Source: Elusimicrobiota bacterium
Lineage (GTDB): Bacteria; Elusimicrobiota; Elusimicrobia; JACQPE01
Length of the DNA: 64,000 nt
Reading direction: 5' to 3'
Assembly (NCBI GenBank): GCA_016205025.1
Contig: JACQJO010000029.1
Span: 97,759 to 161,758, forward strand
The translations under genes and the position numbers were made by a program. The notes beneath the pieces are model-generated. The model saw nothing but the letters and a program-made list of their open reading frames with translations. It was not told the origin of the DNA and did no database searches. Below, in pieces: positions 27,701 through 48,700 of this stretch. Numbering within the stretch: the stretch's first letter is position 1; every line of letters begins with the position of its first letter.

Positions 27701-30700
27701 GCGGCCCTCCTGCGCGCCGCCCGCGATGTCATAGGCGATAAAGAAAGTGACCGGCGCCGCGCTGGTGATGGTTCGCGTGGAGATGGACGGGTGCGTGACC
27801 GTATAGGTCGCGCTTCCCGCGTTAAAGTTTTGACTGCCGCCGATGTTAACGTCGGAAACCGTACTAAAGTTGCCGTCGCCGTTGTCGCGGTAAACCCGGA
27901 TCGCGGAAATATCGGCGTCCGTCATAGTGCCGGAGGAAAGCATCACGATCTCTTTTAAATCAGCCGTGCCGCCATTGGGGTTGGTCCCCGCCGGCAACGA
28001 AAGAGTCAGTTTCAAAATCCCCACGTTGGCCCCGCCCACCGGAACCAATGACGGCGTCAAAGAGGTGGTGGTGGCTCTCACCACGCTGGGGCCATCTAAA
28101 ACATAAGGGCTCTTGGAATCAAATCCGCCGGTGATATTGCCCTTGGATTGAAGATTGGCGGTGTAAGTAAACGCGGAGCCCCCCGCGATCCTGGCGCCCA
28201 GGGTTTGCGCGGCGCCCGGATAGGCGATGTTTTTGACTTTCATGGCCAGATAAAAAGTTTTGGTTGAGTAATCCACCAGCTCGGCACGGCCGCCCGGCGT
28301 CTGCTCACTGCCCAAAATCTGGATCGTGGCCGCGCCGGCGGTGAAAACCACCTGGTTGGAAATTAACGGATCGCCCGGCGGGAACTGGTGTCCGCCCAGC
28401 ACTCCATTTTCAGCGTAAATCGCCACTGACTCAATGTCCGCGTCCGCCAAAGCGCCCAGCTTGCTGATCGTCAGGTTGTTAAAGTAAGCGGTTGTCCCCT
28501 GATCCGCGTACATCTCAAGCTGAATGTACGCCGAGGTGCCATTTTGCGCCACCGAAGTCATGGTAACCGACGACGCCGTCACATATATCGCCCCCGGCAC
28601 GGTGAACGGCCCGTAACAAGAAAAATAGGGACAGACACCAATTGTGTCACAATTGGTGTCTGTCCCTATTTTTCCCGATTCGTTCCCCTGCGCGTCCCTC
28701 GCCTTAAAGCTGGCGTAGTAATCGCCGGCGTTAAGATTGGTGATGGTGGAACCCAAACCGCTAAACCAGTTGGAATTCGCGATTTCGGGCGCGCACCAGG
28801 AGTTGGTGGAAAGCGAAACCCAGTGCGGATTGGGGTCCAGCGCGATATTGTCTTGCGCTGCCGCGCCCAAAGTAACAGACAACTGCCTGGCCGCGGTCGC
28901 GGTAATGCTGGAAACCGGGATGGTCAGGAAATGAACTTGATCGGACGGCGCGTTGTTCTCCCCGCCAGCTATATAAATCCTGTTATTAACAACCGCGGCG
29001 CCAAAGGTGTCCCTGACAGCCGGAAGCGTGGCCGTGGTGGTCCAAACACCCAAAGTTCCGTCCGAGTTGATAGCGGCCTGCTCCACCGTTGTTCCGCCGC
29101 TAGTGTCGCCGCCTAATACGAAAAGTTTATTGTTAAAGGAGACTCCTCGCAATCTGTTTCGCGCCACCGAAATCGTTGAATCAGTGTCCTGCGCCCACGG
29201 CCCAAGGGAACCATCCGGTCTAATCCGGGCATAATAAGTCCTATTGGAATAAGCCGCGCCATCATAGCCGCCGACAACGTAAACCGTATCGCCTGCCAAA
29301 CTAATCGCTATCCCGTTCAGGGGTCGCGGTAAAGAATTGGCTGGCTTCCAAGCGCCTAGCGTGCCGTCGCTGTTAACCGAGGCGTAATAAACTTCCGCTC
29401 TGGCTGGGCCATCATAGTCTCCCAAAACATAAATATTGCCATTAGAAACGCCAGAGGGTTTAAAGTAAAAAGCGCCGAAGAAGGTTAGAGTGCGCGGCAA
29501 CGGTGTCAATAATGAAGACCAGGAACTGATGTCCCCGCCGGCATCAATCGTTGCGTAACGAACAATATTGGTGCGACTGTCGAAATCATTCGCATTACTA
29601 CAGGTCGTGTTGCCGCCCAACGCGTAAAGCCGGGAACCCACCACAACCAACTGCGCGTTGCAGCGCGCCTCCGGCATGGCCGCGCTGACCGCTGACCAAG
29701 AGTTGACTCCACCACTGGCGGAAGCGGTGGAAAAATAAACTGTGCTTTGCGCCACCGAGCCGTCATGCCCGCCGACTACATACAGCTTGTCTTTATGGGC
29801 CGCCATATTAAAGGAAGCCCTGTTAGCCGGCAGATTGTTAGTAGCGGTCCAACCCCCATATCCCCCCTCCGTCAAACTCGGCGGCACCGGCGGTTGATTA
29901 TCCTGCGGATAAAACGGCCCATAACAGGAAAAGTAGGGACAGACACCAATTGTTCCACAATTGGTGTCTGTCCCTACTTTTCCTGACTCATTCAACGCCG
30001 CATCACGAGCCCGGATGCGCACAAAATAAGCGGTGGAGGTGGATAAAGAAGTGCCGGTGTATGAATTTCCCGCCTGCCACCCGGAGTCTGACGTTGCTGT
30101 TCCGGAACAATCCGGGGAAGTTGAAATCTCAATTCTATTGGGCGTGGCATGAAGTCCCGACCCTCCCGCGTCCGTCGGGGCCGCCACCGAAACCTGCAAC
30201 TGTTGGTGCGCCGGGGAGGTGATGCCGCCTAGCGGAATGTCTGCCGTGTAAATGTCAGCCCGGGACACGCTGCCATCATGCCCGCCCACCGCATAAATCT
30301 TGTTTCCATAAACCACCGCGTCGGCTAGGCGCAGAGCGGCTGGACCGCCCACATTAAGAGAGGTGTCTTGAACCCAGGAAGAAAGCGTCCCATTGGCCGC
30401 GATGGTGGAGTAATAAACCTCTTCCTGCGCGCCGGCATTGTACCCGCCGATTACATAGAACCGGTTATTAAAAATAACCAAACCGTGCTGGTGGCGGGCG
30501 GTGACGGCGGTCTCGGTTCTCCAGGTTCCCAAGTTGCCCTGGGTGTCGATGGGAGCCGCGGAGTAGACGGTGCCCACAACAGCGCTTCCGTCAGCACCCC
30601 CGACAACATAAATCCTGTTTCCATGCGCAACGGCGCGACCCTCGGCATTTTTAACAGGAAGTGAAGTCGTGTTTTTCCAAGAACCCAAGGCGCCGTCGCT

Positions 30701-45700: not shown

Positions 45701-48700
45701 TCCTGCCCCACCCAAAACATAAACCCTGTCGTTGTAAACGAAAGAAGCGTGACTCCTGTTGACTGCCGGCAAACTGGTTGTCTGCACCCAGGAACCCGTG
45801 GAAGTCAGCGTTCCATCAGGATTAACGGAGGCAAAGTAAACCTCGGCCCTGGCGGCCGAAGCGCTGTCCAATCCGCCTATCACATACACCCGATCGCGAT
45901 GAACAATGGATGCGTGCTGTCTAAGAGCTCTGGGTAAACTAGACGACACTGCTACGGTCCACGTGGACGGCTCCACCACCGCTAAAATCGGCGGCACCGG
46001 CGCCGCGTTGTCCTGGGGGTAGTAGGGGCCGAAACAACCGGCCGAGGAAGTGGTTGACAAGCCCAGGGAGGACAACTCGTTGCCGGAAGCGTCTTTGCCT
46101 TTGACCAAAAAATAATTGCCCGTCGAAGTGGAAATATTGGTGATGGCAAACGAGGTGCCTGCCTGGTAGCCGCCGCCCGAACCCATCACGGTGCCTGTGC
46201 AAAACCGATTTTCATAAAACTCGAGACTGCCTTGCGGAGACTGGTCAATGGCGTCGCTGGACGCCGTCACCGTCAAATCAATCTCTTTATGCGCCGGCGT
46301 GGTGATGCCGGAAAGGGTGAAGGAGGTCACATAAACCTGACTTTGGTTCAGGGAAGCGCCGATAGAAAACATCTGGTTGTTTAAGACCACGAGACTCGTG
46401 CCCTCTCGAGCAACGGGCAATGACACGATCGAAGTCCAGGTCCCGACCGAACCATCAGCGTTAATCGGCGCGTAGGAAACTCCGCTGGCGCCGACTCCGC
46501 CCGCCACATAAATCCTGTTGTTAAAAACAACGGCGTCGTGCTTGTAGGGATTAGAGGGGATCGTGTTCGGGCTCCTAATCCAATCACCCAAAGAACCGTC
46601 AGGATTGATCTTGGCGTAATGAACAGCTCCGTCGCCGGCGCCGGCCGCATTTTCCCGTCCTCCTGTTAAATAAATAAAACCGTTATGAACCACAGCCGCC
46701 GCCCATTTGCGGCCGATCTGAAGAGGCGAGGTGGCGCTCCAAGAATCAACCGTTCCGGTGGCGTTGATTTTGGCGTAATAAACATTCCGAATCGAAACGC
46801 TGTCATTCCACCAACCGACAGCGCTGCCTATGGAATACAGCCAGGCGTTATCTTTGGTTTCGTACAGAGCGACGGCGTTGGCGCCGATCACTGTGGGTAA
46901 ACCTGCCGTGGCGCTCCAGGAGCTAAGGGTCCCGTCGTTCTCATTAATATCAGCGTAATTCACACCGTTCTGCGGTCCGCAACCCCAGCAGGAAGCATAG
47001 CCGCCGACGGTATAAATACGCCCCTTGCGCGAAACAATCTTGGTGTAAGCCCGGAATATTGCGTTAACCGCGGTCCATGTGGAGGCGGTGTAGCCATCCG
47101 CCGTAGCAGTGGTGTAAAACATATAACCGCCGACATCGTAGCCGCTGACATGGCTGTAAATTTTGTCCTTGTGCGCTATCGAGTGCCATGACACGCCGCC
47201 CGACGCGTAGGCGGTCGCGCCGCTCAAACCTCTGGCCACCCAGGTGGCCCCGTCCACCTGCGTCATGGAAGGCGGCAAGGGCGGCCGGTTGTCCTGGGGA
47301 TAGTAGGGACCGTAACACAACGAAACCCCTTGAACAGCCGGCGTGGAAAGCGAAGTTACATTTAACGCCGCGTCGCGGCCTTGGAGATTAAAATAGTAGG
47401 CCGTCATGGTGGAAAGAGAAGCCGGCCCAAAGCTGGTTGCCGCGGACCAACCGGAGTCATAGACCGCGGCGCCGGTACAGGCGGGCACGGAGTAAAGCCC
47501 AAGTCTGTTGGGCGTGGCGTGATCCGCAAAATCATCATCCGCGCTGGCGGAAAACGCGATCCCCAACTGCCGGTGCGCGGGATAGGTGACGCCAGTTAAG
47601 GTGAAGGAGGCGGTATAAACTTCCAGGAGGGCAGCGCCGTTGCTGCCTCCCACGACATACAAGCGGTTGTTGAAAACGACAGAACCAAAGAAACCCCGCG
47701 CAGTGGGAAGGCCGGTGGTCTGGGTCCAGGAACCAAGCGTGCCGCTTGAAAGAATGGGAGCGGAATAAACTTCAGAATTGATGTACCCACCGATCGAATA
47801 TAGCCGGTTGTTAAAGACGACGGAGCCGGGGGCGCGGCGCGCGGCGGGAAGGCTGGTGGTTGGGGTCCAGGAACCAAGGGTGCCGTCGGCATTAATGGGA
47901 GCCCAATGGACTGCGGCTGTGTTGCCGACTGCGTCTAAACCTCCCACCACATATAAACGGTTACCAAATACAACAGAACCGTGATCGCGGCGCGGCGCGG
48001 GAAGGCTGGTGGTTTGGGTCCAGGAGCCCAGGGTGCCGTCGGGGTTGATGAGGGCGGAATACACCTCGGCTTTAGCGCCGCCATTCTCACCGCCCACTAC
48101 GTAAACGCGGCCATTAAACACAACGGAAGTATGATAACCGCGCGCGGCGGGAAGGCTGGTGGTTTGGGTCCAGGAACCCAGGGTGCCGTCGGTGTTGATG
48201 GAGGCCCAGTAAACTTCAGTAAGACCGCTTCCTCCTATCGAGTACAAACGATTGTTAAACGCAACGGCGCTGTTGCCAAAGCGGCCCGTGGGAAGGCTGG
48301 TGGTCTGGGTCCAGGAGCCGGTTGAGTTGATGGTGCCATCCGGATTGATGGAACCGAAGTAAACTTCGGATTTGGCGCCTGAATTGTAACCTCCTATCAC
48401 ATAAATTTTATTGCCAACAATAACAGAGCCCCCTTCACTGCGCCCAGCCGGTAGTGCGGCGGAAAGGGTCCAGGTGCTGGGCTCCACCACCGCCAAAGTG
48501 GGTGGCAAAGGAGGCGTGTTGTCCTGGGGATAATACGGCCCGTAGCAGGAAAAATAGGGACAGACACCACTTGTGCCACAATTGGTGTCTGTCCCTATTT
48601 TTCCTGACTCATTCCCCGCCGCATCCCTTCCTCTAACAGAAACATAATGCGCGCCGGTATTAGTCAAACTGATAACCGCTGTGCTGACCCCGCTGAACCA

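Follow-up and report, generated by a model that had tools for sequence, protein, structure and literature searches.

A giant, secreted, adhesin-like protein is encoded in a 64-kb stretch of an Elusimicrobiota metagenome-assembled genome (MAG; assembly GCA_016205025.1, contig JACQJO010000029.1), and its open reading frame (ORF) carries four translated copies of a transposase-associated DNA hairpin. The whole stretch of 64,000 nucleotides is referred to as the window, and all positions are counted from its first letter. The hairpins are REPINs, doublets of inverted repetitive extragenic palindromic (REP) sequences, and they belong to the same family as the copies that bracket a nearby REP-associated tyrosine transposase, RAYT-1. 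We consider it likely that REPINs of the RAYT-1 family were placed at least three separate times in the same loop of the giant protein, with the reading frame kept and the inserts translated.

The host gene spans more than half of the window:

21725-59344, minus strand: giant ORF, secreted adhesin-like protein of 12,539 amino acids (aa), uninterrupted.

The protein has a signal-peptide-like N-terminus, ConA-like and C-type lectin domains, many Kelch propellers and a C-terminal FlgD_ig / type IX secretion system (T9SS)-type sorting domain, and its true start is likely ATG 59239 (MNRRLTTLL..., signal-peptide-like). Thirteen paralogous modules of the type Kelch, Ig-like domain and loop could be aligned, in which ...RDAA.NE closes the Ig-like domain, a variable loop of 13-24 aa comes next and an invariant Cys (in C[YF]GP[YF] or CV.QF) follows; a further invariant Cys lies inside the Ig-like domain.

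The hairpin family, called REPIN-1 here, was delimited by the 13-mer TAGGGACAGACAC, which is present in 14 exact copies in the window, forming seven inverted pairs, against an expectation of 0.03 copies in dinucleotide-preserving shuffles. The arms TAGGGACAGACAC/GTGTCTGTCCCTA build seven hairpins, three intergenic and four inside the giant ORF:

18291-18354, unstranded: intergenic REPIN-1, a perfect 64-nt palindrome (32+0+32 nt) flanked by an A-run and a T-run in a bidirectional terminator-like pattern.
18986-19041, unstranded: REPIN-1 overlapping the 3' end of RAYT-1, 26+4+26 nt, with stops in all six frames.
19714-19771, unstranded: REPIN-1 upstream of RAYT-1, 27+4+27 nt.
28619-28678, minus strand: REPIN-1 block in loop m10243 (hairpin 28620-28674), aa 10223-10242, SGKIGTDTNCDTIGVCPYFS; DNA fold -29.5 kcal/mol, z -12.6.
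29927-29986, minus strand: REPIN-1 block in loop m9807 (hairpin 29925-29985), aa 9787-9806, SGKVGTDTNCGTIGVCPYFS; fold z -15.3.
37322-37381, minus strand: REPIN-1 block in loop m7342 (hairpin 37320-37380), aa 7322-7341, SGKIGTDTNCSTIGVCPYFS; fold z -16.5.
48548-48607, minus strand: REPIN-1 block in loop m3600 (hairpin 48546-48606), aa 3580-3599, SGKIGTDTNCGTSGVCPYFS; fold z -13.6.

All seven have arms of 26-32 nt, loops of 0-4 nt and GTAG or ATAG heads, so that REPIN-1 has the two-inverted-REP hairpin form with a GTAG-like head by which REPINs are recognized. The two copies at 18986-19041 and 19714-19771, which bracket RAYT-1, match each other at every position of their shared 56 nt. The genic hairpins have arms of 27-30 nt and loops of 1-3 nt and fold at about -29.5 to -35 kcal/mol (DNA parameters; z -12.6 to -16.5). 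The sequence-only reading from which this analysis started had described them as perfect palindromes; they are hairpins with a short loop, and the copy at 48546-48606 has the single arm mismatch. It had also held every copy to be a multiple of 3 nt, which is true of the block bounded by conserved codons on either side (60 nt in each genic copy) and of the common unit (57 nt, 27+3+27, equal to 19 codons) but not of the palindromic extent, which varies from 55 to 61 nt. A search of the whole window against Rfam at gathering thresholds gave no match. An assembly artefact was rejected as the source of the genic copies, because they leave the 37.6-kb frame open and sit between conserved codons, and an independent assembly reproduces the hairpin cluster at the start of the gene (the REPIN-2 cluster, below).

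On the gene strand the genic copies encode the 20-residue, Cys-containing peptide SGK[IV]GTDTNCxT[IS]GVCPYFS, and the earlier observation of four copies inside the giant ORF that read GK[IV]GTDTNC.T.GVCPYFS was confirmed in an uninterrupted frame. The plus strand of the same copies reads as the same peptide except for the loop codon, because the hairpin is self-complementary; the claim that both strands encode one peptide is thus correct apart from that codon, but it is a necessary consequence of the palindrome. The plus-strand ORFs 29747-29986 and 37160-37381 are antisense read-throughs that end just beyond the hairpin. The 11-nt core is free of stops in all six frames (GTD, DRH and GQT on one strand, VSV, CLS and VCP on the other), and consequently two of the three phases stay open, on both strands, in the genic subfamily, which has the inner stem CAATTGTG (the CAATTG-stem subfamily). 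No frame is free of stops in the copies flanking RAYT-1, and in the copy at 18291 only the GTDT phase is open. The genic copies are therefore the kind able to ride in coding DNA, as a selection filter would predict. They are in-frame intragenic elements in the full sense: the ORF is uninterrupted, the 60-nt blocks encode 20 aa and conserved domains lie on both sides.

Two transposase genes border the giant gene, one at each end, and the second is accompanied by hairpins of its own:

19003-19695, minus strand: RAYT-1, a REP-associated tyrosine (Y1/HUH) transposase; the mechanical ORF starts at TTG 19710.
60100-60789, plus strand: RAYT-2, a second REP-associated tyrosine transposase, within the ORF 60019-60789; likely start ATG 60100 (MPRHPRIEMP).
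59270-59331, 59681-59738 and 60017-60072, with a half copy at 59998-60017: REPIN-2 cluster (core GGTACCWGGTACC), between RAYT-2 and the start of the giant gene.

RAYT-1, which probably starts at ATG 19695, matches Pfam Y1_Tnp with an E-value of 4.5e-15, and its HUH motif (NHVH) and tyrosine motif (RYVERNP) are intact. The PDB search with the single RAYT-1 sequence gave no match; a profile of seven RAYT family sequences found E. coli TnpA-REP (4ER8) as the best PDB match (E 5e-8). RAYT-1 is thus a Y1 transposase with an HUH motif and a catalytic Tyr nearby, bracketed by its own REP copies, as RAYTs are. RAYT-2 lies directly upstream of the giant gene on the opposite strand and is 35% identical to RAYT-1, with NHxH and RY..NP invariant in both; it scores 73 bits against NF047646 (cutoff 80), and Pfam Y1_Tnp matched the independently called gene in the Logan contig L117, in which the REPIN-2 cluster is present as well. 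The mechanical starts, ATG 59344 for the giant gene and ATG 60019 for RAYT-2, fall within REPIN-2 hairpins (KMVPGTKW...); they probably extend the two ORFs spuriously at the 5' end. The census of the window thus comprises seven copies of family 1 (three extragenic, four genic) and 3.5 copies of family 2.

The association between these cores and RAYTs extends to other genomes. With one genome per species, the pair GGGACAGACAC...GTGTCTGTCCC was found at no fewer than 114 loci and, among the matches listed, in multiple copies in Steroidobacteraceae, Caulobacter, Myxococcales, Eisenbacteria, Omnitrophota and Planctomycetales MAGs. The usual architecture is X-core-X'-loop-X-core'-X', in which the arms vary and co-vary. 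Isolated single core matches in some genomes could be chance hairpins, but the multi-copy genomes cannot be explained in this way. RAYT-1 homologues lie between two such hairpins on a Planctomycetales contig (L026, 45% identity) and on a Bdellovibrionales contig (L013/L089); therefore, the genic and the transposase-flanking copies form one RAYT-linked family and do not share a chance 13-mer. Together with the 14 exact cores in the window, this upholds the homology that the sequence-only reading had proposed. In the JGI metagenome scan, TGGTGCCAGGCACC...GGTGCCTGGCACCA accounted for 97 of 124 matches; it has the X-core-X' architecture too and is a very common REPIN family, with RAYT-2 homologues next to it in five metagenome loci. 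Descriptions of REP families usually present them as lineage-specific. Here, many phyla have the cores GGGACAGACAC and GGTGCCAGGCACC in identical form, while the adjoining RAYT homologues are only 33-46% identical.

Translated copies were also encountered elsewhere. A GGGACAGACAC hairpin lies in HrcA of a candidate division WS1 MAG (JAAYIR010000260.1, 5139-5175). It adds 13 aa in frame, KRGQTLSAAESVC, to the N-terminal DNA-binding region, and where the protein is aligned to the T. maritima HrcA structure 1STZ, the added residues coincide exactly with a gap. This hairpin was the only verified copy in the screen of the 114 family-1 loci for genic cases, in which most long spanning ORFs were spurious upstream extensions in high-GC genomes; one further locus (L071) looked coding but had no Pfam match. 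REPINs of the GGTGCCAGGCACC type occur in frame in GidA/MnmG, D-Ala-D-Ala ligase (Ddl), L-aspartate oxidase (NadB) and an FGGY kinase on JGI metagenome contigs. A single Pfam match spans the insert in GidA and Ddl, and Pfam domains lie on both sides of it in L-aspartate oxidase; the FGGY kinase has about six VPGT-coding copies in a row, and its FGGY_N match (residues 13-242) reaches only the first of them. Searching the literature with the core strings GGGACAGACAC and GGTGCCAGGCACC retrieved only unrelated primer matches.

In the giant protein, all four REPIN-1 copies occupy the same structural position, as had been noted from the sequence: each lies between '...RDA(A/Q)(L/G)NE' and the invariant Cys of C[YF]GP[YF] and fills the entire 60-nt loop, which places the slot after the last strand of the Ig-like sandwich, between a Ser codon and the invariant Cys codon. 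The inserts are single, 430-3,700 residues apart and not in tandem. In a modest AlphaFold2 (AF2) model of one module, with a mean predicted local distance difference test (pLDDT) score of 55, the beta-sandwich was modelled at pLDDT 65-80, and most of the hairpin-encoded segment was below 50, as low-confidence coil without secondary structure.

The element is absent from most of these positions. The earlier reading had counted at least five paralogous linkers without it; aligning the 13 loops showed that 9 of the 13 lack REPIN-1, which fits an insertion better than an ancestral part of the module. The closest paralogue of each of three filled modules is among those without it:

m7342, with the element: closest paralogue m1873, upstream domain 79% identical, REPIN-1 absent.
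m10243, with the element: closest paralogue m7777, upstream domain 69% identical, REPIN-1 absent.
m3600, with the element: closest paralogue m2307, upstream domain 57% identical, REPIN-1 absent.

The 60-nt blocks are 54-57/60 identical among all four copies, and the flanking 60-nt windows are only 14-39/60 identical between non-sister modules, with flank identities of about 25-55% among the three non-sister lineages. Identity of m3600 and m10243 to the other copies ends 0-7 nt outside the block. The only sister pair among the filled modules is m7342/m9807, with 27/30, 29/30 and 51/60 identical positions in the flanks and 55/60 in the palindrome. Taken together, the patchy presence of the element, the identity of the blocks, the near-random flanks and the abrupt end of identity lead us to conclude that the element was acquired at least three times separately, in m3600, in m10243 and in the m7342/m9807 pair. 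Direct repeats were looked for by inspection at the junctions of the genic copies and none was seen, which fits a Y1 transposase and not a MITE (miniature inverted-repeat transposable element) of the DDE type. A DDE-derived MITE was rejected as an identity for REPIN-1, since the whole unit is one hairpin with no direct repeat at any genic copy; no DDE transposase was present among the window ORFs scanned against Pfam and NCBIfam.

The same comparisons bear on whether the 20-residue peptide is itself the conserved entity, an ancestral or selected protein module such as a disulfide loop in which palindromy is incidental. The two Cys residues of the peptide, their position beside an invariant Cys of an extracellular protein and the use of one reading phase in all four copies would suit such a module. 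Yet the synonymous sites have not diverged, the DNA being 54-57/60 identical while the flanking codons are saturated, and the closest paralogues do without the peptide. A search with three concatenated peptide variants among 5.8 billion clustered proteins gave no match at E <= 10 and a single candidate that has short words in common with the query, which also speaks against the alternative, put forward earlier, that the transposase spreads a peptide module. As a non-coding repeat linked to RAYTs, the same DNA core recurs in the window and across many phyla, and AF2 confidence is low for the segment. We therefore regard a protein module as extremely improbable. What was borne out is the other proposal of the sequence-only reading, a REP-type mobile palindrome that is carried in coding sequence in either orientation: the family is RAYT-linked and patchily present, and the loop TCC at 29954-29956 (m9807) is the reverse complement of the loop GGA at 37349-37351 (m7342), so that both orientations exist and give the same peptide.

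Two further loops contain hairpins of a different kind:

53751-53800, minus strand: decayed hairpin in loop m1873, with two GGTGCCWGGCACC-type cores; linker 53729-53800, AKVPGTNPGGLEPGTVAFDGRVAA; 23-nt arm; fold z -6.1.
44765-44812, minus strand: more decayed hairpin of the GGTGCC..GGCACC type in loop m4861, filling the loop, SMVPGTNPGVLEPGAI; fold z -3.3.

Both are built on the core GGTGCCWGGCACC, and that of the m1873 hairpin matches a widespread REPIN family linked to RAYTs. The m1873 hairpin occupies the same slot as the REPIN-1 copies, and the m4861 hairpin lies between the same Ser and Cys codons. Exact GGTRCCWGGYACC is found in the window in the six REPIN-2 arms and in loops m1873 and m4861 only. 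It follows that REPINs of a second lineage (core GGTGCCAGGCACC), older and in decay, occupy these two loops. Because the upstream domains of m1873 and m7342 are 79% identical and different families sit in the slot, at least one replacement must have happened there. The tail of the m1873 loop (VAFDGRVAA, 53729-53750) has another small perfect hairpin, GGCCGC-GTC-GCGGCC, and palindromic sequence seems to accumulate in this loop.

A different history would be a single original insertion followed by intragenic spread through module duplication and short-tract gene conversion. The sister modules m7342 and m9807, with the flank and palindrome identities given above, could have arisen in this way. 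Gene conversion across this very loop is documented by m3164 and m4437, which serve as a control: they share a 131-nt identical tract (59 + 39 + 33 nt; 49823-49953 and 46004-46134) in proteins that are only about 60-65% identical, indicative of a recent conversion inside the giant gene. The motifs on the two sides, RDAALNE and CYGPYYPQDN, are conserved, so that some homology for such an exchange is possible. For m3600 and m10243, on the other hand, identity stops 0-7 nt from the block and the flanks are only 15-25/30 identical, which is too little for RecA-type conversion, and no flank was co-converted. An extra flip event would be needed for m7342/m9807, whose loops are reverse complements; m9807 has a GTAG head and differs from m7342 by a compensated A>G/T>C pair in the arms, and the opposite orientation of the two copies could reflect either an independent insertion or a flip between the arms. 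In addition, the second REPIN family in the same slot (m1873, m4861) cannot be produced by conversion from REPIN-1. We consider spread from a single insertion to be unlikely.

The hairpins might alternatively be kept for a role at the nucleic acid level, as attenuator or terminator, ribosome pause, stabilizer of the 37.6-kb mRNA or recombination joint between modules. The arms of all four copies are nearly perfectly paired, one change being compensated, and stems of 27-30 bp have an estimated stability of about -30 to -35 kcal/mol (DNA parameters). In the stretch 18001-38000, a terminator-like pattern was scored on both strands of three genic and three intergenic copies (48546-48606 lies outside this stretch), and in the sense orientation of the three genic copies the stem is followed by TTTTTCC; the tool that was used states that its matches are not evidence of function. 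The strong hairpins of the 37.6-kb gene are the four REPIN-1 copies, m1873 and one in the 5' leader, and there is none other (m4861 is weaker), so that the 5' leader excepted they are found only at this paralogous loop. Homology of large blocks breaks at the loop as well: m1873 and m7342 share 70-83% identity upstream, which falls to a near-random level about 60 nt downstream. Roles of REPs in attenuation and mRNA stability have been discussed (PMC3337134, PMC3733652). But 9 of the 13 equivalent boundaries do without the element, the decay of the older hairpins in m1873 and m4861 speaks against pairing being under lasting selection, recent insertion predicts perfect arms equally well, and breakpoints at domain boundaries are expected from protein-level selection alone. 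Such a role is very improbable in our judgement, although the REPINs might serve as in-frame joints for whole-module duplication, because the homology breakpoints of the large repeat blocks fall at the loop.

We thus favor repeated insertion of RAYT-1-family REPINs, for which the following course is proposed. RAYT-1 would move the 57-nt hairpin as single-stranded DNA, like IS200/IS605 enzymes, and the unit would enter the variable loop between the Ser codon and the invariant Cys codon. The frame would be kept by the whole number of codons, the stop-free core and the identical peptide in either orientation, and translation of the insert would give a Cys-containing loop of 20 residues. Insertions at other places in the gene would have been purged by selection, so that only those in the permissive loop survived, where they are presumably neutral. 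An earlier wave of a related REPIN family (core GGTGCCAGGCACC) would have left the decayed hairpins in the two other loops. The Ser/Cys slot may also be a preferred target, because three independent hits on 13 sites among about 12,500 codons are hard to obtain from tolerance alone. A still stronger proposal is that the slot is a true RAYT/REPIN integration site, at which at least two families were inserted, flipped and replaced as in-frame cassettes; this we find quite doubtful, but if true, it would mean transposase-driven diversification of a surface loop of the giant adhesin.

Several observations weigh against repeated insertion, in whole or in part. The m7342/m9807 pair may represent one event, as the flanks near the loop are 85-97% identical. 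REPIN-1 takes up the whole loop and is not added to an existing loop of 13-24 aa, so that simple insertion works only if the ancestral loop was minimal (N-E-S-C). The JGI metagenome scan returned no exact match to the CAATTG-stem subfamily, which in the 64 kb of the genome that were read is seen within the giant gene only, and a common target motif at the REPIN-1 insertion sites was not definable from so few copies. RAYT-1 scores 72 bits against NCBIfam REP_Tyr_transpos (NF047646), under the cutoff of 80 bits. To our knowledge, RAYT-catalysed REPIN transposition has never been reconstituted for this family, and catalysis by RAYT-1 through an IS200/IS605-like single-strand mechanism is inferred by analogy. 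A search for orthologues of the giant gene with 400 aa around loop m7342 found only distant Kelch proteins of at most 33% identity; the comparison therefore offers no true empty site from a sister strain.

The nearest sequenced relative, GCA_016180815.1 (JACPAN010000020.1; NusA 76% identical), keeps the RimP-NusA-IF2-RbfA-TruB-PNPase synteny. Its syntenic place has flagellar motor genes in place of the giant gene and the RAYTs, and no REP cores were seen in 21 kb; judged from this gene order, the block of RAYT-1, TPR gene and giant gene may be a lineage-specific addition. The same or a very close organism is present in the Logan assemblies of SRR12113383, SRR12113384 and SRR12113385, in which short contigs break off at REPINs (L117 where the giant gene starts, L240 at the REPIN 19714-19771), as expected for repeats.

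Other inverted repeats were noticed near the transposase genes and the giant gene:

18112-18198: imperfect inverted repeat of GGCACTAAGGCAC-like units (33-nt arms, 85% complementary), upstream of a FliG-domain gene and beside the 18291 REPIN.
21226-21257: perfect hairpin CCCCCTAACTCTTT-ACCA-AAAGAGTTAGGGGG inside the TPR gene 19767-21725, unrelated to REPINs.
59363-59400: perfect hairpin GAGGCGCCTCGAATC-8 nt-GATTCGAGGCGCCTC in a 185-aa ORF upstream of the giant gene, unrelated to REPINs.

IS200/IS605 transposases recognize hairpins and move by a single-strand 'peel and paste' reaction that leaves no target-site duplication. The RAYTs described here share the HUH and Tyr fold and motifs of these Y1 enzymes (ISDra2/IS608 TnpA; 2XMA, 2XM3), but they are seemingly not self-mobilizing, and the moved unit is a non-coding hairpin doublet. 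As in the REPIN-RAYT system of Bertels and Rainey (2011), the element is a near-perfect hairpin of two inverted REPs, a RAYT is flanked by its own REPINs, several RAYT/REPIN pairs occur in one genome, and A/T runs flank the doublet, suggestive of terminator-like use (PMC3337134). Classical REPINs are predominantly extragenic and about 89 nt long (PMC3337134), whereas four copies here are translated and the elements are shorter, 55-64 nt, with a conserved core of 11-13 nt between variable complementary arms.

The sequence-only reading had supposed in-frame REP insertions in coding sequence to be undescribed, but they have precedents. Di Nocera, De Gregorio and Rocco (2013) reported intragenic GTAG/CGTC REPs in real genes, more than half of them dimers or groups encoding 20-30 aa and some in ORFs hit twice, and suggested that a position in flexible linkers or loops makes them neutral (PMC3733652). 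The present copies are likewise in-frame REP dimers of 20-30-aa size with a (G/A)TAG head. They differ in that one paralogous loop was used, by four copies and two older ones, where those of Di Nocera et al. are scattered and mostly in DNA replication and repair genes (PMC3733652), and in that the host is an Elusimicrobia MAG with two cognate RAYTs bordering the gene; the cores GGGACAGACAC and GGTGCCAGGCACC do not appear in the text of that paper. A still earlier case, which Di Nocera et al. view alongside their own, is the Rickettsia palindromic elements (RPEs; Ogata et al. 2000, cited in PMC3733652), translated palindromic repeats in frame; RPE-4 and RPE-6 are short and REP-like, and RPE-1 is a longer palindromic insertion (PMC3733652). 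Like them, the elements here are selfish palindromes in frame that are read as an extra peptide, without any sequence relationship. We know of no dedicated transposase encoded beside RPEs, nor of RPEs outside Rickettsia. Palindromic amphipathic repeat coding elements (PARCELs; Roske et al. 2010) consist of an amphipathic repeat of about 25 residues arrayed in tandem in surface proteins and are linked to mobile elements (PMC2996958). Dyad-symmetric coding DNA, a mobile-element link and a surface protein are shared with PARCELs, but the elements here are single, non-tandem inserts of 19-20 codons, and PARCELs have no RAYT link; the present elements are thus not PARCELs. In-frame REP insertion as such is already described, and what is specific to this case is the repeated use of one loop by two REPIN lineages, along with the bordering cognate RAYTs, the Elusimicrobia host and two cores that are identical across phyla.

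The 13 paralogous sites are found in three states, with a fresh hairpin, with a decayed one of the other family or unfilled, and their main value lies in the natural before/after comparisons that they offer for working out how RAYTs move REPINs and choose their targets. These comparisons set the limits of the mobile unit at 57 nt, with no target duplication, and point to the junction of TCR and TGY codons as a candidate target. There is also a practical side, in that these hairpins break short-read assemblies and create spurious 5' ORF extensions, as is probable here for the giant gene and RAYT-2. Because the REP cores of this case are stop-free in six frames, the elements can be carried in coding DNA. 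The case also illustrates how selfish hairpins can turn into translated loops of very large surface proteins.

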